Virus record (IMG/VR): IMGVR_UViG_2778261454_000002
Location: 1 to 19,434 of that record
DNA length: 19,434 nt
Strand: one strand, 5' to 3'
Source of the DNA: a virus
Lineage: Duplodnaviria; Heunggongvirae; Uroviricota; Caudoviricetes
Of the stretch, positions 97 to 18,886 are shown piece by piece. Numbering within the stretch: position 1 is the stretch's first letter; every line of letters starts with the position of its first letter. Under the pieces are notes generated by a model, which saw only the letters and a list, made by a program, of their open reading frames with translations, was not told the DNA's origin and made no database searches. Made by a program: the position numbers and the translations under genes.

Positions 97-221
97 AAAA
101 CAAGTAGTTATACACTTTGTGGGAGCCTATTGGGAACCCGGTGTTTTCATTTCAAGGTGTAATCCATGCGGGGCATCAGAATGAGATATAATGAGATTTT
201 TAGTGTTCCGCTTGAGAGTCT

Positions 222-758
222 ATGATGCTTACCCTAGACGAGATAGGTCAATCTGTACGTAACAATATCCAGTTGATTATTGATCATGTCGGCTTACCTC
301 TTGCTGTTGGTCCGCTCAGTGATGATGATTACAAGATTCTGTGTGGTGGCTATGGTGAGCTTGAATGGGACTATGCGTTAAGCACCTATGGCAACTCCAG
401 AGAAAAGTATGAGTTCTGCATAAAACTTGTTCAGCAAGGTCGGGTTCAGGGAATACCATCAGGAGCAGCAATTTGTGTTTATGGGGTTGAAGAAAACATC
501 TTTCGTATCCATATGATCGAAAGGTTTTCTAGAGAAGATGAATCTCACCCATTGAAAGGGCGCATGGTTTTACTCACTCTTATGAGTGCTTTTATATTTT
601 GTAAAGCTGTTGAATGTAAAGTTGTCCACATTGTAGAGCCAGTACCAGAACTGGTGCAGTATTACGAGTCTTTTGGTTTCCGCATGGAACAGTGCGGTTA
701 TGTGATGTCTGCAGTCATTGATGAGCTGCAGGATATCTTTCTTAAATTTGCTCAGTAG
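222..758 (+). CDS. Hypothetical protein, possible GNAT-fold acetyltransferase-like; cargo gene
   Basis: 178-aa ORF in opposite orientation to the early-left operon and AT-rich relative to the head genes. C-terminal VVHIVEPVPELVQYYESFGFRM resembles the GNAT beta5-alpha4 motif (..FYEKxGF..). TATAAT-like hexamer near 187-192. Fold call is weak. Confidence 0.5.
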   Translation: MMLTLDEIGQSVRNNIQLIIDHVGLPLAVGPLSDDDYKILCGGYGELEWDYALSTYGNSREKYEFCIKLVQQGRVQGIPSGAAICVYGVEENIFRIHMIERFSREDESHPLKGRMVLLTLMSAFIFCKAVECKVVHIVEPVPELVQYYESFGFRMEQCGYVMSAVIDELQDIFLKFAQ

Positions 759-954
759 GTATAGACGAGAAGGGTCTACAAATTGTAGGATACCCGTCCA
801 GATTACCTTAAAGGTACATCTATGGCAGTCGTTTTGTGCTTAAACTACTAAGAAACGATGTCACCAATCGACATGATCGATTGGCATAAGTTAGCTAAAC
901 AAGCTAGCTTTAAAGAGAGGGTTAGAGACGCCTTTACTGTCTCGGGAGTTTTCT

Positions 955-1128
955 ATGAAAGATCAAAAAGCAACCAAGCAACAGGTTAAGTTCGACACAA
1001 TGAAAGCATTCGCAGGTATGGGTGCTGCTGTTGAAGTTCTGATGAAGGCTGCTCCTAATGCGTTCACTCACGCTACTGTCTCTGGTAAAGAGCAGCAGGG
1101 TAAGCTTCGTCGTCGCAAAGCAGCATGA
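955..1128 (+). CDS. Small hypothetical protein (57 aa, Lys/Ala-rich)
   Basis: ATG preceded by GGAG about 8 nt upstream; ends 20 nt before a strong hairpin with T-run. Below the ORF-track length cutoff. An alternative overlapping small ORF starts near 858 in another frame. Confidence 0.35.
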   Translation: MKDQKATKQQVKFDTMKAFAGMGAAVEVLMKAAPNAFTHATVSGKEQQGKLRRRKAA

Positions 1129-1144
1129 TCATAGCTGGTGCTTT

Positions 1145-1178
1145 TTGAAAACCCGCCTTTAGGCGGGTTTTTTCTTTA
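1145..1178. terminator. Bidirectional rho-independent terminator between convergent genes
   Basis: AAACCCGCC-TTTA-GGCGGGTTT stem-loop followed by TTTTCTTT on the plus strand and by a T-run on the minus strand; sits between the plus ORF ending 1128 and the minus ORF ending 1176. Confidence 0.6.
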
Positions 1179-1457
1179 GTGATGTTCTTTGCCCTTCTGT
1201 TTGCCTGTTCTGACCTGTTCCCACTCGATACGTCCTTCTTCTCGTCTTTTGTCTATGTATTCCGCAAGATCCTGAATATTGATGCAACGTTTTGCTTTTT
1301 GTGATGTGCCGATGCGATATGTTGGAACGGGCAACTTACAAGCGTTTGCTTTTGCTTCTGCCGTGGCTGGACTCATGCCAAAGTACTTTTGGCTAACTGC
1401 TGAGAGTTCAATGTTAGGGGTATTGAATTCAGCCATCAGTAAAAACAAGGTGTTCAT
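1176..1457 (-). CDS. PrtN/AlpA-like small DNA-binding protein (putative excisionase or transcriptional activator)
   Basis: Track ORF 1176..1484; start trimmed to the ATG giving MNTLFLLMAEF..., which has GGAG about 8 nt upstream. Resembles the pyocin-activator PrtN family as recalled. Confidence 0.65.
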   Translation of the reverse strand: MNTLFLLMAEFNTPNIELSAVSQKYFGMSPATAEAKANACKLPVPTYRIGTSQKAKRCINIQDLAEYIDKRREEGRIEWEQVRTGKQKGKEHH

Positions 1458-1493
1458 AATTTTCTCCATCAAAACCGGCTGCACCCGGGAAAA

Positions 1494-2066
1494 TCATAAT
1501 TCTGTGCTGGTGGCAGGAATTAATTTCTGCCAGATAGCGGAAACATATTTTGCCTGATGACGAGCATCAGCCAGGGCGTTGTGCCGTTCGCCATCGAAAG
1601 GCATGTCCATTTTGGGGTCGAATCCGATGAAACGCCCAAGCGTAACGATCGTGCGTACATCGTGGTCATTCCAGTACGCCCACGGGCAGATTTGTCCTGC
1701 TCGCTCGTAAGCTCCACGTAAAATTACGTTGTCGAAGGTGGCCCCGTTACCCCAGACTTTTAAATATTTTGTATTGTCTGCATGCTGATTAATGAAATGG
1801 CTCAGTTCAGATAGGGCAGATGATATCGGCATCGCATCATCAACACAGATTGCTGATCGTGCTTCTGAGCTTTGTCTTAACCACCACAGAATAGTGTCAC
1901 CATCCGGCACCGCTCCCTGCTCCATAGCGCTTTCAAGATTAACAGCGGTGTAAAACTCCTGACCCAGTTCACCGCTTTGCGGATCGAAGAATACGGCACC
2001 AATGGAGACAATAGGGGCATTCGGTTTTTTGCCCATGGACTCAAGGTCGATCATTAAGTTGTTCAC
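1494..2066 (-). CDS. 3'-5' exonuclease, DEDDh/DnaQ-like fold
   Basis: 190 aa. N-terminal MIDLES (D-x-E exo motif), later YWNDHD and C-terminal H..ALADARH motif typical of DEDD exonucleases. Annotated start is GTG; true start may be the ATG 4 codons in. Confidence 0.7.
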   Translation of the reverse strand: MNNLMIDLESMGKKPNAPIVSIGAVFFDPQSGELGQEFYTAVNLESAMEQGAVPDGDTILWWLRQSSEARSAICVDDAMPISSALSELSHFINQHADNTKYLKVWGNGATFDNVILRGAYERAGQICPWAYWNDHDVRTIVTLGRFIGFDPKMDMPFDGERHNALADARHQAKYVSAIWQKLIPATSTEL

Positions 2067-2087
2067 GTTAAATATTCTCCTGTTTGG

Positions 2088-2342
2088 CTATTCAGTAATC
2101 TTGCCGCGACGCATCGCACGTAGGTTTTTCAGGTTTGTTTCCTGCTCTATTTCGGCACATATTTTGCGATACTCATCATGCTCCACTCGTTCAAAATCTT
2201 CGTTAAAGCGTTTGATGCTAATCGTTCTCAGCTCGCCATCATTGCGTTTAATTCGGACCGAGTGATCACTACAGCTATGGATAATTACGGGCCAGTTGCT
2301 ACTGTCCGTGTAGATTTGACCGCGCCGAATCAGGCTAAACAT
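2088..2342 (-). CDS. DUF4222-like small phage protein
   Basis: 84 aa; RRGQIYTDSSNWPVIIHSCSDHSVRIKRNDGELRTISIKRF pattern recalled from lambdoid prophage DUF4222 proteins. Tightly packed in the operon. Confidence 0.6.
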   Translation of the reverse strand: MFSLIRRGQIYTDSSNWPVIIHSCSDHSVRIKRNDGELRTISIKRFNEDFERVEHDEYRKICAEIEQETNLKNLRAMRRGKITE

Positions 2343-2344
2343 TC

Positions 2345-2812
2345 TTATTTTTTCTCCTGCTCTGACTGTTCTTTGATATGCAATCGAGGTTCCCCGTCTT
2401 TCGGCTCAGGCCATTGGCGAACCTTATTTATAGCCAGCTTTTTTATCATTGCCTGGGTAATCTGCTCATCACTGATACCGGCACGACGTTGCGCATCCCA
2501 TAACAGGAATTGCATGTCAGCCCATTCGCTAAGGTCGCCTGGTTCAGCAGCAGCCTCGAGCGCTTCTTTGGAAAGGTGCTTCAGCGGACCAACTGGACCG
2601 ACATCGCCGAAAGTAGCCTGTGACCACGCTGCATGCTCACGGCGTACCAGCTCGCGGGCAATAGCCCCATCAATCACCTTCAATACATCAGCGAGAATGT
2701 AGGCTCTGTTCCCGCCGTTTGAGTATTGGGTATCATGCAGCAGGTGTTCGCGTATCTGGTGCAGGCGATCGAGTGATACAGGACCGTGCGCCGGGTGGTT
2801 GTTAGTTGTCAT
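2345..2812 (-). CDS. DUF550-type dATP/dGTP pyrophosphohydrolase-domain protein
   Basis: 155 aa; GGAGG RBS 8 nt upstream of ATG; sequence matches my memory of lambdoid prophage DUF550 proteins. Confidence 0.65.
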   Translation of the reverse strand: MTTNNHPAHGPVSLDRLHQIREHLLHDTQYSNGGNRAYILADVLKVIDGAIARELVRREHAAWSQATFGDVGPVGPLKHLSKEALEAAAEPGDLSEWADMQFLLWDAQRRAGISDEQITQAMIKKLAINKVRQWPEPKDGEPRLHIKEQSEQEKK

Positions 2813-2825
2813 GGGTTAGTCCTCC

Positions 2826-3134
2826 TTAATCCCATTGCAAAACTGATGCGAAATATGCACCGCGACACGGCGAATCACGAGGATGATGCCAGCCTGAATA
2901 GCCATCCTGACCACCTATTGGGCTAACTTTGTACCAGCACTGATAATAGCGGGCGCTACTTGCAAAATCAGCCGCACCATCCGAGTCGATTACATCTTGG
3001 GACACAGAAGCCTGAATTATTTCCGCTTCCGTATAATCGCCGCGCATAACGATGAATCGCGCATCTTCCGAGCAAAGATAATCACATGAACCGTCATATT
3101 TACCTTTGGCGGTAGGTTTGATTAATTTATCCAT
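2826..3134 (-). CDS. Hypothetical phage protein (Cys-rich, 102 aa)
   Basis: ORF with GGGGGAG RBS upstream; start overlaps the stop of the upstream gene; no family recognised. Confidence 0.5.
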   Translation of the reverse strand: MDKLIKPTAKGKYDGSCDYLCSEDARFIVMRGDYTEAEIIQASVSQDVIDSDGAADFASSARYYQCWYKVSPIGGQDGYSGWHHPRDSPCRGAYFASVLQWD

Positions 3135-3135
3135 C

Positions 3136-3483
3136 TCACTCCCCCTTCACGCCAATGCCAGCGGCTACAAGTTCTGCGGTGTTGGCATCCTGCTGTCGGC
3201 AGTCGCATTCAATCTCAATCGGCTCGCCCCATGGCTGCGTGCCGCCACTATCAGTCATTCCTGTGTCGTTGCATTTCGGGCATGGTTTTTCCTCAAGCGC
3301 ATTCAGCAACATACGGATCTCATGTTGTTGTGCTGCTATCGTTGAGTCTTTGGCTTCCAACTCATCCAGCAGCGCCTCCGCCTCGATGTAAATCACCTGC
3401 CGATCGTGGTCTGCCGGGTCGCTATAGTTGTCCTGCATGAACTGGAATTCTTCACGCAGCGCCTGTTTGTTGAGTGCTGTCAT
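3136..3483 (-). CDS. ead/Ea22-like protein with C-terminal CxxC...CxC zinc-binding motif
   Basis: 115 aa; N-terminal coiled-coil-like segment (ALREEFQFMQ..., EAEALLDELEAK) and PCPKCNDTG...ECDC. Start overlaps the upstream stop (ATGA). Confidence 0.55.
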   Translation of the reverse strand: MTALNKQALREEFQFMQDNYSDPADHDRQVIYIEAEALLDELEAKDSTIAAQQHEIRMLLNALEEKPCPKCNDTGMTDSGGTQPWGEPIEIECDCRQQDANTAELVAAGIGVKGE

Positions 3484-3734
3484 TGGGCTGCTCCTTGTCT
3501 GGCTCTGCTCAAGAGCTGGTTAAACATCATGGTTAGGCTGTTACTGCAACCAAACGGCATATCGTTAATGCGGTATGTTGGAATACCCTTGCGAACACCA
3601 GACTTCACGATCCGACCGGTGCCATAGAGCTGAGATAATGCTCCGGCGACCGCTGGGGTCTTTTTGTTCATACCTTTGGCGATTTCACCGCTGGTGGTAT
3701 TCGGATGAGCCTGGAGATATTCAAATACGGTCAT
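3480..3734 (-). CDS. Small winged-helix/HTH-like protein
   Basis: 84 aa; the SGEIAKGMNKKTPAVAGALSQLYGTGRI segment looks HTH-like; ATGA overlap with the upstream small gene. Confidence 0.5.
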   Translation of the reverse strand: MTVFEYLQAHPNTTSGEIAKGMNKKTPAVAGALSQLYGTGRIVKSGVRKGIPTYRINDMPFGCSNSLTMMFNQLLSRARQGAAQ

Positions 3735-3898
3735 GGCGTTTTATCTTTACGTTCCTGTTCCAGTTGCACCAGAGACTCTTTTAATGCTGCGAACGTAGCG
3801 TCCAGTCTGGTGGCGACTTCGCGCATAAGCGGCGCATGCTTTGGTGGCAATTCAGCAACGGAGGCAAACGCCTCCGCTACGAGTTCTTTTACCTTCAT
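3731..3898 (-). CDS. Small hypothetical protein (55 aa)
   Basis: Not in the ORF track (under 60 aa). ATG overlaps the stop of the HD hydrolase gene and its stop overlaps the next ATG (ATGA at both ends), suggesting translational coupling; predicted MKVKELVAEAFASVAELPPKHAPLMREVATRLDATFAALKESLVQLEQERKDKTP. Confidence 0.35.
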   Translation of the reverse strand: MKVKELVAEAFASVAELPPKHAPLMREVATRLDATFAALKESLVQLEQERKDKTP

Positions 3899-4434
3899 GC
3901 GGCGCATTGGCGCTGCTCCATCAACTCGTTAAAGCGATTGATGAACATGCCGTATGACTGGCCAGGACGAACTGGGTTGATAATGAATAAATCCGTTGGG
4001 ACAACTCCCTCGAGGCATGGCCAAATGGAACCTTCGTCAATCTCAAAATCGCGGCGTTCGCTGGCGAGCATCACCAGATCGGCATATTTCACTGTTGGGT
4101 GTTGCTCCGTCGGTAGGCCAAATTTCTGGCGAATAGCAGCGTCTACGCGAGCTTCGATCACCTGGTAATCCGGTAACAGGCGCTTAAGCGGTGAGGGAAT
4201 ATCTTGCAGGTAGGCTTCGGCGGCATCATGAAGCAGTGCTTCTAAGGCAAACTCCTGCGGAACGAGATGGCTGGTTAAAACGCTATGCTGGCCGACGCTG
4301 TAAAACTCAGGAAGATGCCCTGCAAAGCGGCAGATATGAGACAACGCGGTAGCAATATCCTCGATCACGATATCGTCCTGTTGGATATCGAGGTAATTAA
4401 AATGTTTGCCGGATAATGTCTGAATGTAGCTCAT
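3895..4434 (-). CDS. HD-domain phosphohydrolase (YfbR-like 5'-deoxynucleotidase family)
   Basis: Track ORF 3895..4461 begins at GTG; start trimmed to ATG (MSYIQTL...) with GGAG 6 nt upstream. H..HD motif region ALLHDAAEAYLQDIPSPLK resembles YfbR HDASEVLTGDLPTPVK. Confidence 0.7.
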   Translation of the reverse strand: MSYIQTLSGKHFNYLDIQQDDIVIEDIATALSHICRFAGHLPEFYSVGQHSVLTSHLVPQEFALEALLHDAAEAYLQDIPSPLKRLLPDYQVIEARVDAAIRQKFGLPTEQHPTVKYADLVMLASERRDFEIDEGSIWPCLEGVVPTDLFIINPVRPGQSYGMFINRFNELMEQRQCAA

Positions 4435-4542
4435 GGTTTTCTCCATATTGGCGCGCTGCACCGCGCCATTAAATTAATGAATTGCTGAATTTAGCGTGCA
4501 GCAACCCAACCCATGCTTATGGGGGTAATTGTTGCCTGGTGT

Positions 4543-5460
4543 TTATCGCTTGGCTTCGCCGCCGAGAGAGGTTGTTAATCCGTTAATGAGAGAGATAAGC
4601 TCGCCGGTCATCAGAACAAAGTCAGCGTCGAACCTCTGAGCCGCATCCTCACGGTCGATATCGTCGTTTTGTTCTGTAATCTCATTAGAGAACTTAAGGC
4701 GTTTGATGCTGCCGTCATCGCAAAGAACGAACTGAATGCGCTGTTGCCAGTCGATAGACAGCTTTGTAACTACTTTGCCAGCTTCCAGATGCACATGAAT
4801 TTCGTCACTGACCAGAGTCTGTTTTTTAAAGCGTCCAATACCGCCATCTTCAAGAATAGCTTTCAGTTCGGCTTCATCACCCAGGCCAAAGCCAGCAGGC
4901 GCACTACCGGAACGAACCCATTCGGTCATAGTTAGTTCGATCGGCGTTTCCATAGTCAGCGGTACCACCGGGAGAGAACCGAGAGTTTTACGAAGCAGGG
5001 CCAGTGAGTCTTCGGCACGTTTAGCGCTGGCTGCATCAACCATGATCAGACCGTCGGTGACGTTGATCCACAAACTAACAGTCGAGTTTTTGGAGAACGC
5101 CCGAGGAAGCAGGGAGTGCAACACTTCATCACGCAGCGAATCTTTCTCAGTTTTTTTGAGGCGACGCCCCTGATCGGATTCCAGACGCGACACACGCTTG
5201 CGCAGTTCTTCAGCAATGACAGGAGATGGCAGTATTTTTTCTTCCCGGCGAATAACCAACAACACTTGATTATTGACAGTGTGATGCAAGCGATCTGACA
5301 GCTGACCAAGTGGTGATACCCAACCGGTTTTTGCCATATCCTGGCTACCGCATGGAGTGAAGCGAAATAGTTCAAGCTGCTGTTCCAGCTCTTCCTGGTT
5401 GATGGTGAAATCGCGACTAATGCGATACACCAACATATTTTTGAAAAACGGATTGTTCAT
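4543..5460 (-). CDS. rdgC: Recombination-associated protein RdgC homolog
   Basis: 305 aa, alignable along its full length to E. coli RdgC as recalled ([85 protein letters not shown]). GAGGAA RBS upstream. Confidence 0.85.
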
Positions 5461-5772
5461 TCTCGGTTCCTCAACGCCTCTGCACCGGCGCTAAAAAGTT
5501 AGTTTCTCCATACACAACAGAGAAGGGCACCTGCATTGGTCGGCGGCTTGCAGAGACCGCTTTCTTTTTGCCCGGGTGGATTGGGTTATGAGCCCGTCGC
5601 CCGGTGATGCCCTTTTCTGTTGTGCCCTGAAAAAGGCTGGCGGTTACCGGAAATACACGGGAAAACACCGGGCCGCCAGAACAGGGAGTTACTTGTTATT
5701 GCTTTAGCCTGCTTTTAACCACATCAGGCGCGGTGGTATCTTGGTGTTCTCACACAACCAAGAGGGATGTTT

Positions 5773-5970
5773 ATGGGCGCTTTTGATAACCAGGAAATTA
5801 CGTTACCCGCATGCCCTAAGTGCGGCACTAAGACGAAGAAGAAAATCGCTTGGCTCAAGTCGAACAAAAGTTTCACTTGTCGATGTGGAGCTACTATCAA
5901 TGTCAACAGCAGCCAGCTTACTTCCGAAATCAGGAAGGTTGAGGACAAGCTGAAGAAGCTCTTTAAATAG
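5773..5970 (+). CDS. Small zinc-ribbon protein (CPKCG...CRCG), 65 aa
   Basis: Track ORF 5767..5970; ATG at 5773 sits about 7 nt after AGAGGGA; followed by a hairpin with T-run. Overlaps antisense with the 3' half of the minus ORF 5803..6168. Confidence 0.45.
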   Translation: MGAFDNQEITLPACPKCGTKTKKKIAWLKSNKSFTCRCGATINVNSSQLTSEIRKVEDKLKKLFK

Positions 5971-6168
5971 TTTTTTATCGACTGATATTATTTCGTTATC
6001 AGAGGTTGGTTTTTCAGCCTCTGATTTTTTAGTCAGGATCATTTTTTCTACACATGTGACTACGCATTCCGAACAGATGGCAGGTTCGTCCTTACCACCT
6101 TTTGCGACGATCTTTATCGCTCCCAGTTCGGTTGCTCCGCAAAATGAGCATGTGAATAAATGATTCAT
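5803..6168 (-). CDS. ClpX-type C4 zinc-finger small protein; first gene of the leftward operon; 3' extent uncertain
   Basis: ATG at 6168 with GGTGGTAGAGG RBS (track start 6186 is TTG). N-terminal CSFCG...ICSECV resembles the ClpX N-terminal zinc finger. The downstream two-thirds is antisense to the plus ORF and may not be coding. Confidence 0.4.
   Translation of the reverse strand: MNHLFTCSFCGATELGAIKIVAKGGKDEPAICSECVVTCVEKMILTKKSEAEKPTSDNEIISVDKKLFKELLQLVLNLPDFGSKLAAVDIDSSSTSTSETFVRLEPSDFLLRLSAALRACG
5999..6030 (+). terminator. Rho-independent terminator-like hairpin
   Basis: TCAGAGG ... CCTCTGA stem with a 12-nt loop followed by TTTTTT, 29 nt after the stop at 5968-5970. Confidence 0.5.
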
Positions 6169-6279
6169 GTAAACCTCTACCACCAACCTAAGTTTTCTGT
6201 CAGCGAATCATCCGGTTATTCATATGCCACCGGCGGCTACTTCGTGGGCGTCCTGCCTGTTCGTTACTGCAACATCTTT

Positions 6280-6325
6280 AAGTTGTAATCTAGTTGTTGT
6301 TTTGGTTGTTGTCAACAACTTTATG
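6280..6325 (-). promoter_or_regulatory. Candidate pL promoter with OL-like operator palindrome
   Basis: On the minus strand, TTGACA (plus 6310-6315), a 17-nt spacer and TAGATT (plus 6287-6292). The -35 lies inside GTTGTTG-N-CAACAAC (about 6305-6319). Placement right of cI matches lambda pL/OL logic. Confidence 0.4.
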
Positions 6326-6378
6326 TGGTTTTGACGGATGTGAAATGAGGGCAAGGGTTATCAAAAAAGGAGGTTGTA

Positions 6379-6482
6379 TGGACGATGCGCTTTTAATTAC
6401 ACAAGGGACACTTTCCTTCCGTGATTGGAAACTCTCAAATCACGGGAGGAAGATTGAAAAGGCGGGTAATAATGGTAACTAA
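6379..6482 (+). CDS. Possible small peptide (34 aa); low confidence
   Basis: ATG 5 nt after a near-perfect AAGGAGG; contains an 8-bp-stem hairpin (CCGTGATT...AATCACGG, about 6419-6446). Part of the longer TTG-start track ORF 6294..6482. Confidence 0.2.
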
Positions 6483-6509
6483 ATTTCTGAAGGAAGGTTT
6501 TTTGATGCA

Positions 6510-7196
6510 TTACCAAGTGCGCGATGACCAGAATACTCTACCTATAACGTGAATTCTTGAACGCCTATCTTCGAAGGTGAGTATTTCATCTGGATACTCA
6601 TCTTTATTGAAACTTCTTAGAATCAGACCACCGTCAGGTAAATTGATCAATATTTTAACTCTAAGTAATACGCCATCACGTATGGCATAAAGATCCCCAT
6701 CACGAATAGGAACCGTTTGGGAAACATCAACAGCAACAAAATCTCCATTGTTAAGTACAGGTAGTAAACTATTGCCCCAAATTTTTACGATCTTTGCATT
6801 GGAGACACATACACCAGCTTTTCTTAAATCAATCCTTCTTAGCGGGAACCAGTCTACAGTTGATTCAACTATTTCAGCCAAACATCCATTACCCGCTGAT
6901 AACTCGACATCTAGGACTGGAATGTTTGCAAAAATGTCAGGATCTAATGCTGTACTTTCAGCCTCCTTTACAACAAGGTCTGGGAAAGACGCGTTATCCT
7001 CAATGCCCAATTGCAACCACTTTTGAGAAACCCCTAACACTTTAGCAATCTCTTTAATTTTCCGAGGCTGTTGAGTTTCTCCATTCTCGATTTTCGCTAC
7101 GGATTGTTGTGAAAGCCCAATTTTTTCAGCTAGTTGCGCCTGACTCATTCCTGCTTTTTCTCTTTCGCTTTTTAGTCTTTCTGCCAATGTTTTCAC
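6510..7196 (-). CDS. cI: CI-type prophage repressor (N-terminal XRE HTH, C-terminal S24 LexA-like autopeptidase domain)
   Basis: 228 aa; HTH MSQAQLAEKIGLSQQSVAKIENG; C-terminal domain with Ser in IWGNSLLP and Lys in LLRVK. Divergent from cro; GTG start. Confidence 0.9.
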   Translation of the reverse strand: MKTLAERLKSEREKAGMSQAQLAEKIGLSQQSVAKIENGETQQPRKIKEIAKVLGVSQKWLQLGIEDNASFPDLVVKEAESTALDPDIFANIPVLDVELSAGNGCLAEIVESTVDWFPLRRIDLRKAGVCVSNAKIVKIWGNSLLPVLNNGDFVAVDVSQTVPIRDGDLYAIRDGVLLRVKILINLPDGGLILRSFNKDEYPDEILTFEDRRSRIHVIGRVFWSSRTW

Positions 7197-7199
7197 AAC

Positions 7200-7333
7200 A
7201 TATCCCCCTCGTTTTTATTGAGGTTACAACTTTATGTTTTAGCTTTCCAACATCTAAAAGTTGTGATAAAAGTTGTTGTAGTTGTATAATCGAAGTTATC
7301 AACAACTTTACTACTTACAGATAGGAGAAAGCT
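7200..7333. promoter_or_regulatory. OR-like operator cluster with PR (and presumably PRM)
   Basis: Repeated ACAACTTTA / TAAAAGTTGT and GTTGTTG / CAACAAC half-sites at about 7226-7238, 7254-7279 and 7299-7312. Plus-strand TATAAT at about 7285-7290 with TTGTGA about 18 nt upstream; AGGAGA RBS before cro ATG 7334. Confidence 0.6.
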
Positions 7334-7582
7334 ATGACACCTGAGCAATTAGCCTTATCAGAGGCAATCGCTCTGGCTGGTGGTCAATCAGAATTGGCTC
7401 GGAAGCTCACAGCCAGCAGTGGTCGTTTAGTAAAGCAACAACATGTCTGGAACTGGTTGAACAGAGAAAAGCGTCCCCCTGCAAAACTCTCGATATTTAT
7501 TGAAATGACCACTGGCGTATCAAAAGAAAAATTACGTCCAGATATTTTTCAAAAGATTAAAGACTTATCAGATGGAAAGTAA
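7334..7582 (+). CDS. cro: Cro-like HTH regulator (YdaS-like family)
   Basis: 82 aa; first gene rightward of OR, divergent from cI; HTH-like GGQSELARKL; YdaS-family resemblance is from memory. Confidence 0.7.
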   Translation: MTPEQLALSEAIALAGGQSELARKLTASSGRLVKQQHVWNWLNREKRPPAKLSIFIEMTTGVSKEKLRPDIFQKIKDLSDGK

Positions 7583-8156
7583 CCACAGTTTTAAGGAGAT
7601 AGCCGTGGGTAAGCATCACTGGAAAGTAGAAAAACAGCCTGAGTGGTACGTGAAAGCTGTCAGAAAAACTATCGCGGCGTTGCCGGGTGGTTACGCTGAA
7701 GCTGCTGACTGGCTGGATGTAACAGAGAACGCATTATTTAACCGCCTTCGTGCCGATGGCGATCAGATTTTCCCGCTGGGATGGGCAATGGTTTTGCAAC
7801 GTGCTGGTGGAACTCACTTCATTGCTGACGCTGTGGCGCAGTCTGCAAATGGCGTCTTTGTGTCTCTTCCTGACGTCGAGGATGTGGACAACGCCGATAT
7901 TAACAAGCGCCTGCTGGAAGTCATTGAACAGATTGGCAGTTATTCCAGACAGATTCGTTCGGCAATCGAAGACGGTGTGGTGGAACCGCATGAGAAGACA
8001 GCAATTAACGACGAGCTGTATCTCTCAATTTCGAAGCTGCAGGAGCATGCAGCACTGGTCTACAAAATCTTTTGCATTTCAGAAAGTAATGACGCCCGCG
8101 AGTGTGCAGCTCCGGGCGCCGTGGCGTGTCGTGACTGTGGAGAAACTAACGCATGA
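7572..8156 (+). CDS. CII/YdaT-like phage regulatory protein
   Basis: 194 aa directly after cro with an 11-nt overlap; position and size fit CII-type regulators (CP76/YdaT-like) of lambdoid prophages. Family assignment is from memory and uncertain. Confidence 0.55.
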
Positions 8157-8491
8157 ACAGTTTAACAACACACTACCGTCGCTCGCAACTGATTGCGCTT
8201 CCTGTACCGGGTGGAAAAGCGAAGGTGGAGTATTGCTATGCAGTTAATGTACCAGGTGACAGGGAAATTGTAACCCACAGCTTTGCTGAGTGGGCTGTGG
8301 GTGATTTCAACCGGCAGAAGGAGACAGTCCTTTGCGACAAGTTAACCGCTGGTTCAAAGATCACTACGGAGTGCCCGTCAGAGTCATTCGTTGGGAACCG
8401 GAAACACAACGGGTTATCTACCTCCGCGAAGGCTATGAGTATGAGTGCTTCAGCCCGCTCGAACAGTTTCGTCGTAAATTCAGGGAAATAG
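8153..8491 (+). CDS. Hypothetical protein; reading frame probably disrupted in its 3' half
   Basis: ATGA overlap with the upstream stop. N-terminal 60 aa look protein-like, but the C-terminal third is Ser-rich low complexity, while an overlapping Met-less frame (8305..8511) encodes a protein-like sequence. Confidence 0.4.
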
Positions 8492-8500
8492 AGGTCGGTC

Positions 8501-9136
8501 ATGAGCACTAAATTAACCGGCTATGTATGGGATGGTTGCGCAGCGTCAGGCATGAAATTATCCAGCGTGGCAATTATGGCCCGCCTGGCTGATTTCAGTA
8601 ATGACGAAGGTGTGTGCTGGCCATCAATTGAAACCATTGCCCGCCAGATTGGCGCGGGGATGAGTACCGTCAGAACGGCTATCGCACGGCTGGAAGCAGA
8701 AGGCTGGTTAACGCGTAAGGCGCGTCGCCAGGGTATCTGCATCATCGTCTGCCTGTCATGGGCTGTTAATCATTACCGTGATAACGCCATCGCCTATAAA
8801 GAACAGCGCGATAAAGCCACGTCTATCATCGCTGATATGCAGAAGCGTCAACGTGATGTAGCAGAACTTGACGCCAGATACACAAAGGAGCTTGCTGATG
8901 CTAATGCGACTATCGAAAGTCTCCGTGATGATGTTTCTGCTGGGCGTAAGCGCCTGCAAGTCGCCGCCACCTGTGCAAAGTCAACGACCGGAGCCAGCAG
9001 CATGGGCGATGGAGAAAGCCCAGGACTTACAGCAGATGCTGAACTCAATTATTACCGTCTCCGAAGTGGAATCGACAAGATAACCGCGCAGGTTAACTAC
9101 CTGCAGGAATACATCAGGACGCAATGCCTGAAATAA
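8501..9136 (+). CDS. Chimeric ORF: replication-initiator-like HTH N-terminal domain (about 78 aa) fused in frame to the C-terminal part of i-spanin Rz
   Basis: N-terminal [34 protein letters not shown] is an HTH typical of phage O-like initiators. From [19 protein letters not shown]... onward it is colinear with lambda Rz ([20 protein letters not shown]...[19 protein letters not shown]...LRDDVAAGRRRL...). Junction near nt 8735. Confidence 0.7.
8904..9083 (+). CDS. rz1: o-spanin Rz1 lipoprotein, embedded in the +1 frame of Rz
   Basis: Inside track ORF 8868..9083; [18 protein letters not shown] has a lipobox (LLGVSAC) followed by a Pro-rich segment ([16 protein letters not shown]), as in lambda Rz1. 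Start codon chosen by me. Confidence 0.7.
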
Positions 9137-9159
9137 TTTTTTTGCAAATCACAAAGTCA

Positions 9160-9235
9160 ATTTAATGAGCCTCGCGATGCGGGGCTTTTTGCAATAAATG
9201 CGTACCGCAACGCATGTTTTTTACACCGAACCTGC
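9160..9235 (+). terminator. Two tandem hairpin/T-run elements downstream of Rz
   Basis: AGCCTCGC-GAT-GCGGGGCT followed by TTTTT, and ATGCG-TACCGCAA-CGCAT followed by GTTTTTT. Coordinates approximate. Confidence 0.4.
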
Positions 9236-9337
9236 CCCTTTGGAATGGGCCTTTGAGGATACCAGTTAGTGCTGGCGAGCCTCGGTGGGCTGGTTTCCTG
9301 TGCGGCAAAGGTTCATTTCAAAGAGTAGGTACACGCT

Positions 9338-9835
9338 ATGAAATCATTAACCCTCTTCAATCAACCAATTCGTATCGGTGAAGATGGCATGATCTGCCTC
9401 ACTGATATGTGGAAAGCCAGTGGTAAAAGTGAATCTGAATCGCCTTACCACTACCTGCGAAACAAGCAGACCAAAGAGTTCTTAGCCGAGCTGGAGAAAA
9501 ACCACGAATCTGTGGTTTTTACTGAGCGCGGTGTACACGGTGGAACATATGGCGGGAAGTTTGTTGCTTACGATTATGCGGCTTGGTTAAACCCCGGGTT
9601 CAAGTACGCGGCCTATAAAGTCCTCGATGACTACTTCACAGGAGAACTTCAGCATCGCAACAGCTTAAGTGCGCAGCTCAACATGAAATGTCATGAGTTT
9701 GACCAGAAGAAAGACATGGCGAGTTTCTGCGGACAAGGGCTGGCGGCATGGCGCTATACGAAGCCAGTGTTGGTCGCTGAGATTAACTCCCTGGCTAACC
9801 AGCTGCAGATTACGATCCCCGGGCTTCCGGGATGA
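9338..9835 (+). CDS. KilA-N domain protein
   Basis: 165 aa; N-terminal pattern (FNQPIRIGEDGMICLTDMWKASGK...) matches the KilA-N DNA-binding domain as recalled. Confidence 0.65.
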   Translation: MKSLTLFNQPIRIGEDGMICLTDMWKASGKSESESPYHYLRNKQTKEFLAELEKNHESVVFTERGVHGGTYGGKFVAYDYAAWLNPGFKYAAYKVLDDYFTGELQHRNSLSAQLNMKCHEFDQKKDMASFCGQGLAAWRYTKPVLVAEINSLANQLQITIPGLPG

Positions 9836-10089
9836 GTGATCGTGTCATTGAATGCGCCTCCAGAGCGGGGCGCGACTTCTCAGAGTTCATGAAAGGCGAG
9901 AAGGGCATGATGGAAGCATTGGCCTCGGTGGATGAGTTTGGCGAGCAGCTGCGCCTCAACGGCTGTGTCAATCATCACTTTGTTAGCTACATGATGCGGA
10001 ACTCGATCATGCAGGCATTCATGGACATGGCAAAAGCCGAGAGGAAAGAAGAGCGCCGGCGTAAGCGAGCGGAAGCAAAAGCGAAGTAG
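9832..10089 (+). CDS. Hypothetical protein (85 aa, basic C-terminus)
   Basis: ATGA overlap with the KilA-N stop; C-terminal KAERKEERRRKRAEAKAK; followed by a hairpin (AAGCCCA...TGGGCTT). Confidence 0.5.
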   Translation: MSDRVIECASRAGRDFSEFMKGEKGMMEALASVDEFGEQLRLNGCVNHHFVSYMMRNSIMQAFMDMAKAERKEERRRKRAEAKAK

Positions 10090-10183
10090 CCATTCCAAAG
10101 CCCATCTACGGGTGGGCTTGATAATGGTATGTATTGTCTTCGGGAAGGCTTTGTAGATGTTAAGCGATTATTAAGAGGCAATC

Positions 10184-10342
10184 ATGACTTTAGCTGAACG
10201 TGTAAAGAGAATTGAGAGCGAATTAAAAGACATTAAATCGCAACTCAATTCTGGTACCGATTCTAGGAAAACAGCAAAAGCAATGCCCTTATCCAGTCTT
10301 GCAAAAGAGGGAGGTATCCCTGGGGGGTTAGTTAAAAAATGT
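10184..10342 (+). CDS. Small hypothetical protein (52 aa)
   Basis: Not in the track; AAGAGG RBS 6 nt upstream of ATG; predicted MTLAERVKRIESELKDIKSQLNSGTDSRKTAKAMPLSSLAKEGGIPGGLVKKC; its 3' end overlaps the convergent protease gene. Confidence 0.3.
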
Positions 10343-10792
10343 TAACTCAAATACTTGATTGGAAAAATCCATCGTAAGGGCGCCCATTTTAATTAGTTGC
10401 ATTCCGAAAACGACTTGGAATTTTCTCCCGTTACTTACCAATGGCACTGAAGTCAATTCTGTTGAAAAAACTCTTTCGTCCTCAGTGAACGATATTACCG
10501 CATGCCGAACTGTAGTTTCTATTGTTGAGGTGGCTCCGCTCACAGTTGTTTTTTCCGCGATTGGGAGTTTTAAATCGTCAGCAAAGTCTGAATCCACATA
10601 GCAAAGATCTGCTCCGGTATCTATAAGTGCGTAGGCACCAGCCTTCAATCCATTTGGTTTATAAACGTTTATATCTTTTGAGCTACTTGGCCATACTGTC
10701 AATGGAACTACGGGAATTGCATGCTCCGTGGGGGTATCTGATACCGATCCATCAATAGGGGAAATAAACTTGATTTTTACTTTGGTGATCAT
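10328..10792 (-). CDS. Retropepsin-like (clan AA) aspartic protease
   Basis: 154 aa; catalytic-type motif ALIDTGADLCYVD (D-T-G-A) and C-terminal GMQLIKMGALTMDF resembling the retropepsin dimerisation strand; AAGGA RBS. AT-rich, opposite orientation to its neighbours, with its own upstream intergenic region. Confidence 0.65.
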   Translation of the reverse strand: MITKVKIKFISPIDGSVSDTPTEHAIPVVPLTVWPSSSKDINVYKPNGLKAGAYALIDTGADLCYVDSDFADDLKLPIAEKTTVSGATSTIETTVRHAVISFTEDERVFSTELTSVPLVSNGRKFQVVFGMQLIKMGALTMDFSNQVFELTFFN

Positions 10793-11051
10793 CCTTTTTC
10801 CTTCGAAGAGTTATTCAGCCATTCCTCCTCTTTGCGTGAATCAGTGTCCCACCACTGACGGGCTGAATGCTTACCTTACCCGGGGTTAAAACGAAGTAAT
10901 ACCCTGATATTCAGACAGTAACCGCATCGCGCGGCATTTATGCGCATCGCACGCGCACATCAAAGAAAGTCTTTCAGCTGTGAGCCTGGGCAAACCGTTA
11001 ACTTTCGGCGGCTTTGCCGTGCGACAGGCTCACGCCTAAAAGGAAATACCC

Positions 11052-11216
11052 ATGAAATATTTATCGCTACAACAGGCGATGCTCGGCATGCGAGTAATCA
11101 TGACCGATGATGGCCTCATTTTGAAAAGCCCGGCAGGTAGTGCGCATTACGATCTGAAAGGTCGACGCCATACAGTTTGGGGGATGCTTCTTTCTTCCCG
11201 GAGCATATGCGTGTGA
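11052..11216 (+). CDS. Small hypothetical protein (54 aa)
   Basis: Not in the track; ATG about 8 nt after AAGGA; overlaps the next ORF in a different frame. Confidence 0.3.
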   Translation: MKYLSLQQAMLGMRVIMTDDGLILKSPAGSAHYDLKGRRHTVWGMLLSSRSICV

Positions 11217-11725
11217 AGGATAAGCGTAAGCCTAATCTCAGCCGTATTGTTTTTGAGAAAGACTGCACGACTATTTATGGTGCTGATGGAAAACCACAAG
11301 CACGCATAGGTAACTGGGATAAACCGGGAGAACCAAAAGGCTGGCGAATCCAAAAAGACGGCGCGTATATAACGTCTTATGAATTCAATCCTAAGAATAA
11401 TTTTAATGAGAACGGCCAGCAGTATGCAGCTGGAATGGTCGTTGGTATTGATGTGCAAAAGGGCAATGCAGCTGTTAATGCCAATCAATTTAAGTCTCCG
11501 ATAGAAGCACCAGATCCAATAACCGAGAGCATTTTAGAAAATGCACTTTCAACCCATGCTGCTAATAAAAACATCCAGGCCCTCATCAACCAGCAAGCAA
11601 AGGAGATCGTGGAAATGAAACAGGGCTTTGCCGAGTCTGTAAAAAAGGAGCTGGCTAAGCATCTTCGCCATGGTGGATTGATGTGGTCTGCATTAGTCAA
11701 GCGAAGTAGACGTTTAGACGTCTAA
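11207..11725 (+). CDS. Hypothetical protein (172 aa from ATG; track ORF begins at TTG 11177)
   Basis: Long ORF with no family recognised; the last gene before cos, where lambda carries bor and accessory ORFs. Confidence 0.5.
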   Translation: MRVKDKRKPNLSRIVFEKDCTTIYGADGKPQARIGNWDKPGEPKGWRIQKDGAYITSYEFNPKNNFNENGQQYAAGMVVGIDVQKGNAAVNANQFKSPIEAPDPITESILENALSTHAANKNIQALINQQAKEIVEMKQGFAESVKKELAKHLRHGGLMWSALVKRSRRLDV

Positions 11726-11789
11726 ATAACAACAGGCACTCAAACACAATTGATAACCATTATCGTTTGGGTCCTTTCCGGCAATCCGC

Positions 11790-11815
11790 CCTGTTACGGG
11801 GCGGCGTCCGCGCAG
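11790..11815. other. cos site: cosN nicking region with predicted 12-nt cohesive end GGGCGGCGTCCG (about 11799-11810), cosB downstream
   Basis: GTTACGGGGCGGCGTCCGCGCAGATTCTCGCTATATATGAAAATTTT is nearly identical to lambda cosN (GTTACGGGGCGGCGACCTCGCGGGTTTTCGCTATTTATGAAAATTTT), about 80 nt upstream of Nu1. Confidence 0.7.
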
Positions 11816-11886
11816 ATTCTCGCTATATATGAAAATTTTGGACATGAGGTTGTTGTTTAATCATTGCTGAAAACGGGTGAGGGAAT

Positions 11887-12393
11887 ATGGCCGTGCTATT
11901 GAATAAATCTGATATGGCTTCCTCGCTGGGAATATCCGTCCAGGCCTTTGATAAATGGGGTGTCCAGCCAGTAGAAAAGAGAGGGCGAGAAGTCTTCTTT
12001 GACGTTCGTTCAGTCGTTGATAACCGCATCGAACACCAGAGTCGAAAACTACAACCATCGCCGGGAGAAGACGATGATAGTGTCAATATTGATTATGAAC
12101 GTTGGCGTTTAACTCGTGCTAATGCGGATGCGGCTGAGCTGGCCAATGAGAAAAAGCGTCGCGAGGTCGTAGAGACTGCGTTTTGTACCTTCGTGTTATC
12201 CAGAATTGCCGCTGAAATATCCAGTATTCTGGATGGCATACCCCTTTCGATGCAGCGCCGGTTCCCTGAGCTGGAAAATCGGCATATCGAGTTCCTGAAA
12301 GGGGACGTAATAAAGGCAATGAATAAGGCTGCGGCGCTGGATGAACGGATTCCGGGGTTGTTGAATGATTATATCGACCAGTCAGGTAGCTAA
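11887..12393 (+). CDS. Nu1: Terminase small subunit Nu1
   Basis: 168 aa; C-terminal two-thirds almost identical to lambda Nu1 (VVETAFCTFVLSRIA.EI.SILDG.PLS.QRRFPELENRH..FLK...IKAMNKAAALDE.IPGLL); GAGGGA RBS. Confidence 0.9.
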   Translation: MAVLLNKSDMASSLGISVQAFDKWGVQPVEKRGREVFFDVRSVVDNRIEHQSRKLQPSPGEDDDSVNIDYERWRLTRANADAAELANEKKRREVVETAFCTFVLSRIAAEISSILDGIPLSMQRRFPELENRHIEFLKGDVIKAMNKAAALDERIPGLLNDYIDQSGS

Positions 12394-14287
12394 TCTGCGA
12401 ACAGCGGTAAAAGCTGGTCTGAAATCACTATACCGCCCGGAACCCATGACAGCTGTCGAATGGGCCGATGCGCATTATTACCTTCCGAAGGAATCCGCTT
12501 ATCAGGAAGGGCGCTGGGAAACATTGCCATTTCAGCGCGCGATCATGAATGCGATGGGCAGCGACTATATTCGCATTGTTAACGTAATTAAGTCGGCGCG
12601 AGTAGGCTATTCGAAAATGCTACTCGGCGTCATTGCTTATTTCATCGAGCACAAACAACGTAATGAGTTGCTGTGGCTGCCGACCGACGGCGACGCAGAT
12701 AATTTCATGAAGTCACACGTTGAACCTACGATCCGTGATGTTCCCTCGCTGTTATCACTTGCTCCCTGGTATGGGAAAAAGCACAGGGATAACACGCTGT
12801 CGATGAAGCGATTTACCAATGGCCGTGGCTTCTGGTGCCTGGGTGGTAAATCGGCTAAGAACTATCGTGAAAAATCAGTCGATGTCGTTGGATACGATGA
12901 GCTGGCTGCGTTTGACGCTGATATTGAGAAAGAGGGTTCGCCGACCTTCCTGGGGGATAAGCGTATCGAGGGTTCTGTTTGGCCCAAATCCATACGCGGT
13001 TCGACACCGAAATTGCGTGGAACGTGTCAGATTGAGCGGGCAGCAAAAGAGTCCGGACATTTTATGCGATTTCATGTCGCATGTCCGCACTGTGGTGAAG
13101 AGCAGTATCTTAAATTTGGTGACCGGGATACGCCTTTCGGCTTCAAATGGGAGCCTGAGCAGGCCGAAACGGTCTACTACCTCTGCGAGCATAATGCTTG
13201 TGTCATTAAGCAACATGAACTGGACTTTTCCAACGCTCGTTATATCTGCGAATTGACCGGAATATGGACGCGCGACGGGCTTCGCTGGTTCTCATCGTCT
13301 AATGCTGAAATTGATCCACCTGAAAGCGTAACTTTCCACATCTGGACAGCTTATAGCCCGTTTACCACTTGGGTACAGATAGTTAAAGACTGGTTCAAAA
13401 CGAAAGGCGACACGGGTAAACGCAAGACATTTGTGAACACCACCCTGGGCGAAACGTGGGAAGCGAAAATCGGTGATCGCCCCGATGCAGACGTTTTAGC
13501 AGAGCGTAAAGAGCACTTTGATGCTGCAGTACCTGAGCGAGTGGCGTATCTGACAGCGGGGATTGACTCCCAGCTCGACCGTTACGAAATGCGTGTGTGG
13601 GGATGGGGGCCGGGTGAGGAAAGCTGGCTTATCGACAGGCAAATCATCATGGGTCGCCATGATGATGAGTCAACGCTTGCCCGTGTGGATGAGGCGATTA
13701 ACAAGACATATAAACGCCGGAACGGCGTAGAAATGTTTATATCCCGTATCTGCTGGGATATCGGTGGTATTGACCCCACTATCGTTTACAACCGCTCGAA
13801 AAAACACGGTCTGTTTCGTGTGATCCCGATAAAGGGTGCGTCGGTTTATGGAAAGCCGGTGGCGAACATGCCCCGCAAACGCAACAAAAACGGTGTTTAT
13901 CTGACAGAAGTGGGTACTGATACCGCGAAAGAGCAGATTTATAACCGCTTCACGCTGACCGTTGAAGGTGATGAGCCTCTGGCCGGTGCCGTTCACTTCC
14001 CCAATAACCCCGATATTTATGATCTTTCAGAGGCGCAGCAGCTGACCGCCGAAGAACTGGTCGAAAAGTGGGTTGATGGTAAGAGAAAAATCATATGGGA
14101 CAGCAAAAAAAGGCGAAATGAGGCTCTCGACTGCTTTGTTTACGCACTGGCGGCGCTTCGTATCAGCATATCCCGCTGGCAGCTTAACCTTGATTCACTT
14201 CTTGCCAGCCTGCTGGAGGAAGAAGGCACCCGTAACAATAACAAGACCCTGGCGGATTACGCGCGGGCATTGTCTGGAGAGGAATAA
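12365..14287 (+). CDS. A: Terminase large subunit A
   Basis: 640 aa versus 641 in lambda; high identity along the full length (for example [40 protein letters not shown]); overlaps Nu1 as in lambda. Confidence 0.95.
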
Positions 14288-14493
14288 TGGCAACACAGAC
14301 TGAACTGGATGCCGCGCGCGCTGCGTTACATGACCTGATGATGGGGAAACGAGTGGCGACGGTACAGAAAGATGGCCGAAGAGTGGAATTTACAGCTACC
14401 TCAGTTACCGATCTCAAAAAGTATATTGCTGACCTTGAATCTCAGGTTGGTACCACATCACGACGCCAGGGGCCTGCAAGGTTTTACGTATGA
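14287..14493 (+). CDS. W: Head-tail joining protein W
   Basis: 68 aa, near-identical to lambda gpW ([41 protein letters not shown]). Confidence 0.9.
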
Positions 14494-16082
14494 AAATACC
14501 ATCTTTAGTGGGTCCTGACGGGAAAACATCCCTTCGGGAATACGCGGGGTATCATGGCGGCGGCGGAGGGTTTGGTGGTCAGTTGCGGGGCTGGAATCCA
14601 CCAAGCGAAAGTGCTGATGCGGCTCTTCTGCCTAACTTCTCGCGCGGAAATGCCCGTGCTGACGATCTGGTCAGAAATAATGGCTATGCGGCAAACGCCG
14701 TGCAGCTCCACCAGGACCACATCGTCGGGTCATTTTTCAGACTCAGCTATCGACCGAGCTGGCGCTATCTTGGCATCAATGAGGAGGATTCACGCGCATT
14801 TTCGCGGGATGTAGAAGCCGCCTGGAACGAGTATGCCGAGGATGATTTTTGCGGGATTGATGCTGAGCGCAAGCGAACCTTTACGATGATGATCCGTGAA
14901 GGTGTGGCCATGCATGCGTTTAACGGTGAATTATGCATGCAGGCGACCTGGGACAGCGATTCAACGCGTCTTTTCCGTACTCAGTTCAAAATGGTCAGTC
15001 CGAAGCGCGTCAGTAATCCAAACAATATCGGTGATACCCGGAACTGTCGCGCTGGGGTAAAAATCAATAACAGTGGTGCTGCGCTGGGATATTACGTCAG
15101 CGACGACGGATACCCCGGCTGGATGTCACAGAACTGGACCTATATTCCGCGCGAGCTTCCTGGTGGCCGCCCCTCGTTTATCCATGTATTCGAACCGATG
15201 GAGGATGGACAGACCCGTGGGGCTAATGCGTTTTACAGCGTGATGGAGCAGATGAAAATGCTCGATACCCTGCAAAACACCCAGCTCCAGAGCGCTATCG
15301 TAAAGGCCATGTATGCAGCCACCATCGAGAGTGAACTGGATACCCAATCGGCGATGGATTTTATCCTCGGTGCGGATAATAAAGAGCAGCAGAGCAAACT
15401 GACAGGCTGGCTCGGCGAAATGGCAGCCTATTACTCCGCTGCGCCGGTTCGCCTGGGCGGGGCAAGGGTCCCACACCTGTTGCCGGGGGATTCTCTTAAC
15501 CTTCAGTCGGCGCAGGATACCGATAACGGCTATTCAACGTTCGAACAATCCCTGCTGCGTTATATTGCTGCAGGGCTGGGTGTGTCGTATGAGCAGCTTT
15601 CACGAAACTATTCGCAGATGAGCTACTCGACCGCACGCGCAAGTGCTAACGAGTCCTGGGTGTACTTTATGGGGCGTCGCAAGTTTGTTGCGTCCCGACA
15701 GGCCTGCCAGATGTTTCTTTGCTGGCTGGAAGAAGCGATTGCCAGAAGGGTGGTCACGCTTCCTTCGAAAGCCCGTTTCAGTTTCCAGGAGGCTCGAACA
15801 GCATGGGGGAACGCCAGCTGGATTGGCTCTGGCCGAATGGCTATTGACGGGCTGAAAGAGGTGCAGGAAGCCGTCATGCTTATTGAGGCTGGTCTCAGCA
15901 CGTATGAGAAAGAGTGCGCCAAACGCGGTGATGATTATCAGGAGATTTTTGCCCAGCAGGTCCGGGAAACAATGGAGCGTCGTGCTGCGGGTCTGAAACC
16001 ACCGGCATGGGCCGCTGCCGCTTTTGAGGCTGGACTGAAAAAATCAAACGAGGAGGAGCAAGATGGCGCACGAGCTGCGTAA
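14490..16082 (+). CDS. B: Portal protein B
   Basis: 530 aa versus 533 in lambda; very high identity ([54 protein letters not shown]). Confidence 0.95.
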
Positions 16083-17406: not shown

Positions 17407-17415
17407 GAGGCTATC

Positions 17416-17748: not shown

Positions 17749-17777
17749 TCCGCATTTCTACAACCATCATCATTCAT

Positions 17778-17803: not shown

Positions 17804-17815
17804 CGGGAAATATCT

Positions 17816-18841: not shown

Positions 18842-18886
18842 CTTCCCCCAGTGGCCCTGTCGGGCCACCTTTCTGGAGTATTTCCC

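Follow-up and report, generated by a model that had tools for sequence, protein, structure and literature searches.

The sequence examined here, positions 1 to 19,434 of the IMG/VR virus record IMGVR_UViG_2778261454_000002 (Caudoviricetes; the whole 19,434-nucleotide (nt) stretch is hereafter the window), is, as judged by its sequence, the immunity and early-right region of an e14/SfII-type lambdoid prophage. Directly downstream of its cII-like gene, ymfL, lie, very probably, two same-strand genes that are initiated separately, ymfM and a gene for a DUF4222 family protein, which overlap out of frame over 160 nt, with the ymfM frame kept open across the overlap. Both frames are real, conserved and intact. 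Within the overlap, the DUF4222 frame holds the sequence constraint, and stop codons are excluded from the ymfM frame.

An initial annotation had flagged this locus as a reading-frame discontinuity and left the choice between a frameshifted gene in a decaying prophage and a separate small gene initiated at TTG. That interpretation is partly supported: the separate gene is borne out and the frameshift is not, and the either/or missed the point that both open reading frames (ORFs) are real at once. The features on which it was built were accurately described. The last 52 residues of the 112-amino-acid (aa) ORF form a Ser-rich, low-complexity C-terminal part, which includes 11 Ser and is 54% Ser/Thr/Ala/Gly/Asn, as compared with 32% in the N-terminal 60 residues. 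The overlapping frame, which has no ATG, is open from 8305 (after TGA at 8302-8304) to the TAA at 8509-8511, and the peptide quoted for it was correct. The first start codon of that frame, TTG at 8332-8334, has AAGGAG ahead of it. Read from the sequence, the Ser-rich tail of the 112-aa ORF is an out-of-frame reading of DUF4222, and the apparent discontinuity is a standing annotation conflict between ymfM (K-12 b1148) and DUF4222. The features of the locus are as follows.

8139-8143, plus strand: Shine-Dalgarno (SD) sequence GGAGA of ymfM, 9 nt ahead of the ATG; a GGAGA/GAAGAG-type sequence is kept at equal spacing in 15/15 lineages inspected
8153-8491, plus strand: ymfM ORF from the ORF list, 112 aa, e14 YmfM type (PHROG 1170; 94-98% identity to Escherichia coli/Shigella YmfM clusters)
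8153-8323, plus strand: conserved N-terminal module (N-module), YmfM residues 1-57, where ymfM is under protein-level selection (PHROG 20047)
8318-8323, plus strand: SD sequence AAGGAG of the DUF4222 gene, 8 nt ahead of the TTG, as read from the sequence
8332-8511, plus strand: DUF4222 gene of 59 aa, initiated at TTG and offset by -1 from the ymfM frame, with its TAA 8 nt inside the next gene
8332-8491, plus strand: dual-frame overlap of 160 nt, with the DUF4222 frame selected for sequence and the ymfM frame for openness only
8489-8494, plus strand: ymfM stop codon TAG within TAGAGG, an SD-like element of the next gene, identified from the position of the ymfM stop relative to the next ATG across lineages

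The DUF4222 gene

The product encoded at 8332-8511 matches Pfam PF13973 over profile positions 1-52 of 53 (E = 4.9e-19; 68.1 bits against a gathering cut-off of 27) and PHROG 1343 (E = 1.4e-33). With the proteins of PF13973 it shares the full-length domain, the size (59-70 aa) and a position just upstream of a replication (O/primosomal) gene. In relatives, the Prokaryotic Genome Annotation Pipeline (PGAP) used for RefSeq annotates the same 59-aa coding sequence at relative coordinates identical to 8332-8511. At the position homologous to the TTG, the Klebsiella, Raoultella, Citrobacter, Pantoea, Eeyore and mEp390 lineages have ATG and other lineages have GTG, and an SD-like GGAG is found ahead of the ATG in the Klebsiella and Citrobacter homologs. 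The ratio of non-synonymous to synonymous substitution rates (dN/dS) is ~0.08 as compared with the Klebsiella/Citrobacter copies, with synonymous change near saturation (proportion of synonymous differences, pS, 0.61-0.76). AlphaFold2 modelled a small β-barrel fold with a predicted local distance difference test score (pLDDT) of 84.6, and the product is confidently predicted to be a folded 59-residue SH3/Tudor-like β-barrel. On the available sequence evidence, DUF4222 is judged to be an independent gene with its own predicted start (SD and TTG here; ATG or GTG elsewhere). No functional literature on the DUF4222 family was found, the family being named only in passing, and no NCBIfam model matched either DUF4222 or YmfM.

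In the minimum free energy fold, the DUF4222 SD (GAAGGA) is paired at 8316-8334 with a UCCUUU that runs into the TTG start, though the z-score of the fold is only -1.6. Such a hairpin, if formed, could make initiation of DUF4222 dependent on ribosomes translating ymfM. The same local hairpin, the -1 position of DUF4222 relative to ymfM and the long, conserved overlap are also what might be expected of programmed -1 ribosomal frameshifting from ymfM into the DUF4222 frame, with a fusion product added to or replacing the separate products. This explanation is highly unlikely. The ymfM frame (8153-8491) includes 0 heptamers of the X_XXY_YYZ type, the fold of 8285-8385 is not significant (z = -1.6), and no Rfam match was found there or anywhere else in the window. 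Moreover, DUF4222 has its own SD and a start codon that is ATG in many lineages, and phages of Yersinia, Morganella and Providencia clearly have two distinct genes.

The ymfM gene and its N-terminal module

The 112-aa ORF matches the 112-position profile of PHROG 1170 (E = 4.1e-70) and, through its N-module, the 63-position profile of PHROG 20047 (E = 3.3e-44). Both the sequence match and the synteny, directly after a CP76-family ymfL with which it forms an ATGA overlap, identify it as a member of the YmfM group of prophage e14. The e14 gene (K-12 b1148) is the same gene, encoding 112 aa with ~97% identity and found in the same place after ymfK/ymfT/ymfL, and the K-12 copy (RR1, locus L002) has an identical two-frame layout. 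In the literature, ymfM stands for one product of 112 aa, whereas two nested ORFs are seen here. The two prophages also differ downstream, where the replication gene is fused to terminase in e14 and to Rz in the window.

As far as sequence conservation indicates, only the first ~57 residues of YmfM form a conserved protein module. Identity between the E. coli N-module (aa 1-57) and those of phages is 59% for Klebsiella, 45% for Pantoea, 41% for Providencia and 38% for Hafnia. The N-module has a dN/dS of 0.37-0.43 against Klebsiella and Citrobacter relatives, close relatives show 0 non-synonymous against 2-3 synonymous changes, and 12 of the 14 sites that are polymorphic among E. coli-type copies fall at codon position 3. 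The lineages sharing the ymfM SD include Hafnia, Providencia, Pantoea and Citrobacter, and by sequence the module comprises at least three subtypes. It also occurs as a stand-alone gene of 59-65 aa with the next gene directly after it, in Hafnia phage yong2, Providencia phage PSTRCR_117lys, Morganella and Citrobacter phage phiNP. The N-terminal part of ymfM is, by these sequence measures, a real gene. Hence each of the two ORFs has an SD and a start codon, and outside the overlap each is under purifying selection (dN/dS of 0.4 for the N-module and 0.08 for DUF4222).

The omission of the 112-aa ORF from RefSeq would imply that only DUF4222 is real and that ymfM is spurious. In RefSeq relatives, PGAP leaves the equivalent of 8157-8331 without annotation; the 112-aa ORF has no Pfam match, just as it has none in NCBIfam; and the AlphaFold2 pLDDT is modest for the N-module (51-67) and 48 for the whole YmfM model. 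A spurious ymfM is nonetheless very improbable given the conservation of the N-module protein from E. coli to Hafnia, Providencia and Pantoea, the third-position bias and dN/dS described above, and the conserved SD and ATGA coupling to ymfL.

Distribution of the two-frame layout

Megablast with 8100-8560 found matches with 95-99% identity in 2,004 of 5,426 complete E. coli genomes. RefSeq annotation of those genomes shows ymfL, then only a 59-aa 'DUF4222 domain-containing protein', and then a helix-turn-helix (HTH) gene, whereas GenBank phage records, such as that of SfII, call the 112-aa ORF instead. The layout is also present in phages SfIV, mEp390, mEp460_4F5, Eeyore, Klebsiella ST101-KPC2phi6.3 and Pantoea AH07, as well as in SfII itself, and both frames are intact in 85/85 E. 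coli-type copies fetched. In a search of 5.8 billion proteins, homologs of the 112-aa ORF had 112-117 aa and matched it over its full length down to 46-63% identity. With GenBank K-12 and phage records calling ymfM, RefSeq/PGAP calling only DUF4222, and both genes apparently real, each annotation set lacks a gene.

The frameshift proposed in the initial annotation amounts to a single ancestral gene, with N-module and DUF4222 in one frame, split by a 1-nt deletion in a decaying prophage. The window prophage is defective, its replication gene being fused to that of Rz, and a few database proteins (P0030, P0053, P0060 and P0065) do join both parts in frame. These fusions amount to ~22 member sequences, as compared with >2,000 for the 112-aa form, and because their junctions fall at four differing positions they are read from the sequences as sporadic indels or sequencing errors and not as the ancestral form. 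No clade of intact relatives with one continuous protein over both halves was found in these searches. Furthermore, the split layout occurs in viable phages and in more than two thousand E. coli genomes, DUF4222 has its own ATG in other lineages, the N-module stands alone elsewhere, and the homologs at 46-63% identity cover the whole 112-aa frame, which is the very outcome that the initial annotation had named as refuting its proposal. A split ancestral gene is thus exceedingly improbable, and the preferred interpretation remains that of two genes that overlap out of frame.

Selection within the overlap

Among E. coli-type copies, 23 of the 33 polymorphic sites in the overlap lie at codon position 3 of DUF4222. 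When read in the ymfM frame, the polymorphisms of the overlap comprise 28 non-synonymous and 6 synonymous changes, and the apparent dN/dS of this frame is 2.2-3.9. The YmfM tail of ~52 residues is Ser/Thr-rich and predicted to be disordered, with an AlphaFold2 pLDDT of 32-39. As judged by the dN/dS, the excess of non-synonymous changes and the predicted disorder, the amino-acid sequence of the tail is not under selection.

For a wider comparison, DUF4222 was located in 187 loci (121 distinct DNAs), from which 31 representatives with <85% nt identity were retained. These were sorted into 18 nested lineages, in which an N-module ORF runs into the DUF4222 start in the +1 frame, and 13 control lineages, in which none does. 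This grouping replaced one used in a first codon test, which was partly circular. A first scan of viral contigs with the N-module had recovered mainly identical copies of the E. coli type and contributed little further diversity.

In 18/18 nested lineages, no stop codon occurs in the ymfM frame before core codon 45, at a median third-position identity of 0.43, and in 12/18 the ymfM-type stop is at exactly the position seen in the window. The choice of synonymous codons in DUF4222 follows the risk of a stop in the ymfM frame. Across the 18 lineages, 0 of the xTN codons at stop-risk sites were purine-ending and 65 were pyrimidine-ending, versus 28 purine-ending and 45 pyrimidine-ending at safe sites (p = 1.6e-9). 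Purine-ending xTN codons are confined to sites at which C or T opens the following codon, as in ATA CGC versus ATC AGA, or CTG CGN versus CTC AGG. Given the DUF4222 protein and a free choice of synonymous codons, the expected openness is 0.02-0.11; when the synonymous codons of each gene are shuffled among positions with the same amino acid, it is 16-28%. Five of the 13 control lineages have 2-4 stops in the +1 frame, and hence the DUF4222 protein sequence does not force openness. In this dual-coding test, the DUF4222 frame was constrained in sequence and the ymfM frame was constrained against stops only, with mixed results for the controls, 8/13 of which were also open in the +1 frame in the absence of N-module ORF entry.

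Several of the controls are overlapped in the +1 frame by other ORFs, namely Ant in a Stx1 phage and Ash in Hafnia phage yong2. In the latter (L005), a DUF4222 gene in a second context (2492-2677) lies at the 5' end of an ORF for an 'Ash family protein' (from 2496), with the +1 frame open for 211 codons. DUF4222 genes thus seem to be repeatedly overlapped in the +1 frame by neighbouring ORFs.

Composite ORFs annotated as 'transcriptional regulator' or 'Ant' were seen in SfV (orf37, L106 752-1588), ST64B (sb41, L105 758-1915), a Stx1 phage ('Ant', L104 884-1906) and L021 (1501-3162), the last with a frame open for 553 codons. Their frame begins with an N-module-type start or a short leader, crosses DUF4222 in the +1 frame and goes on into a Rha/Ant-type domain, and the DUF4222 genes beneath them are not annotated in the respective records. 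The composite 'regulator'/'Ant' ORFs of SfV, ST64B and Stx phages are products of the same overlap effect.

Termination beside the replication gene

The stop codon of the N-module ORF lies within -19 to +10 nt of the start codon of the next gene in every lineage, with or without DUF4222 between. Of the 15 rows for the nested type, which includes the window, Klebsiella, Citrobacter, Pantoea, Eeyore and mEp390 among others, 11 have the stop 10 nt ahead of the next ATG, 2 have it 4 nt ahead, and the other 2 have it 10 nt past that ATG. The window stop, TAG at 8489-8491, is within TAGAGG, 6 nt before the ATG at 8501 of the replication gene. Where no DUF4222 is present between them (Hafnia, Providencia and Atlantibacter), the N-module gene and the next gene form an ATGA-type overlap.

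A serial arrangement, in which the N-module gene ends at the ATG of DUF4222 or just a few nt beyond it (ATGA-type junctions), was observed in Providencia PSTCR8lys (L108 681-1062), Yersinia YeP1 (L109 710-1065) and Morganella IME1369_02 (L110 687-1071).

The serial order of N-module and DUF4222 is probably the ancestral, non-nested form. The nested layout would then be derived from it, an N-module gene that once stopped at the DUF4222 start having lost its stop codon. The positions of starts and stops suggest a chain of translational coupling along the operon. In such a chain, ymfM would start at an ATG coupled to the ymfL stop, with its own SD, and ribosomes translating ymfM would terminate beside the start of the replication gene, at the TAG in TAGAGG, thereby coupling its translation. 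The need to terminate at this coupling site may be what keeps the ymfM frame open; alternatively, a function of the disordered tail may do so.

A different explanation accepts both genes as real and takes the long ymfM tail for read-through without function, open because of shared ancestry and DUF4222 codon bias and not because of selection or coupling. This is a serious possibility, though it is held to fall short of probable. It would account for the unconstrained, disordered tail, for the open controls, for the 16-28% of codon shufflings that leave the frame open, and for the existence of N-modules of 59-78 aa without a ymfM-type tail. It accounts less readily for a frame that is open in all 18 nested lineages despite a third-position identity of ~0.43, for purine-ending codons that switch with the first base of the following codon, for the 2-4 stops carried by the five closed controls, and for the fixed position of the stop beside the ATG of the next gene.

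Other points weigh against two independently initiated genes with a ymfM frame held open. TTG is a weak start codon, and in Phytobacter sp. V91 (L013) the DUF4222 frame is interrupted by an internal TGA (Trp to stop) at 1698-1700 while the ymfM-type frame is open for 113 codons, this being the only lineage seen in which DUF4222, and not ymfM, looks disrupted. The open controls point to some ancestral or intrinsic bias. The codon counts treat lineages as separate though they are not phylogenetically independent, and the Val of column 21 is GTC even at safe sites. The evidence for the coupling mechanism is the geometry of starts and stops, and no ribosome-profiling or proteomic report for ymfM was found in the literature.

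The overlap of two separate genes, with a ymfM frame kept open, is still preferred. A more elaborate version of it can be offered tentatively and is considered rather unlikely: a relay from ymfL through ymfM to O, with the frame actively held open across the nested DUF4222, with an SfiC phenotype that perhaps depends on DUF4222, and with DUF4222 genes recurrently overlapped in the +1 frame (ymfM tail, Ant, Ash and orf37/sb41). The locus offers a clean, widely sampled and probable case of an ORF extended over its neighbour by stop loss, with the new frame selected only for openness, and is useful for studies of overprinting and coupling.

The SfiC phenotype

When the K-12 ymfM ORF is expressed from pBAD24, Z-rings fail to form, an effect that does not depend on SulA, SlmA or MinC, and YmfM has been equated with SfiC, an SOS-inducible division inhibitor (bioRxiv 10.1101/2020.11.19.390815). 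The 2020 preprint is from the group of the earlier flow-cytometry expression screens, which recovered fragments spanning ymfL to ymfN; its text includes neither 'DUF4222' nor 'start codon' and does not discuss an internal ORF (bioRxiv 10.1101/2020.11.19.390815). The 339-nt ymfM ORF includes the DUF4222 SD, the TTG and 53 of the 59 codons, which cover the whole predicted fold. By sequence, the cloned ORF would also carry a near-complete DUF4222 gene with its SD, and the division-inhibition phenotype of cloned ymfM could come from either product. The identity of SfiC is thereby reopened in a directly testable form, namely which polypeptide inhibits Z-ring formation.

Comparison with known overlapping genes

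In the Rz/Rz1 pair of phage lambda, a small gene, Rz1, is wholly embedded in another reading frame within a larger one, Rz, of the same strand, and both sequences are functional. Like Rz1, DUF4222 is a small, independently initiated gene in another frame in the 3' part of a larger gene of a lambdoid phage. Unlike Rz1, it extends 20 nt past the end of the larger gene, and amino-acid conservation is absent from the part of ymfM that it overlaps. Nor is there a functional link between YmfM and DUF4222.

Translationally coupled genes that overlap at ATGA or TAATG junctions, with termination and reinitiation, are known from phage early operons, the usual overlap being 1-10 nt. The 4-nt ATGA overlap of ymfL and ymfM, the Hafnia, Providencia and Atlantibacter N-module genes that end in ATGA, and the ymfM stop within the next SD are all of this kind. 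In contrast, the ymfM ORF crosses a whole intervening gene in another frame, over 160 nt. The nested out-of-frame pair belongs to a type well known in phages. Each of its members already has database entries, but their relationship is apparently undescribed.

Genomic context of the locus

The neighbouring genes are listed below.

6510-7196, minus strand: S24/HTH cI-like repressor gene of an e14/SfII-type immunity region
7334-7582, plus strand: YdaS/cro-like gene (ymfT)
7572-8156, plus strand: cII-like gene, named ymfL in RefSeq relatives (Pfam Phage_CP76, E = 1.5e-13), with its stop overlapping the ymfM ATG (ATGA)
8501-9136, plus strand: downstream gene with a replication-type HTH_36 N-terminus and an Rz lysis C-terminus by Pfam, in the same frame as ymfM

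The early-right gene order is hence cro-like ymfT, cII-like ymfL, ymfM, DUF4222 and the replication gene. A strong sigma-70-like promoter (TTGTGA, 18-nt spacer, TATAAT) is located at 7261-7290, between the divergent cI-like and cro-like genes. By sequence and position it would fit a pR-type early promoter from which ymfT, ymfL, ymfM and DUF4222 are transcribed. No promoter internal to the locus was found for DUF4222, the sole good sigma-70 match being that at 7261-7290, upstream of ymfT.

In the downstream gene, Pfam HTH_36 covers residues 23-70 and Phage_lysis residues 100-209, a replication-type gene being joined in frame to the C-terminal part of Rz with the junction near 8731. Megablast matches to the 8501-9136 gene region break at query position 172, and the HTH_36-Rz junction was found as one piece in 0 of the 5,426 complete E. 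coli genomes. This fusion implies a deletion that removed everything between the replication and lysis modules, and thus a defective prophage.

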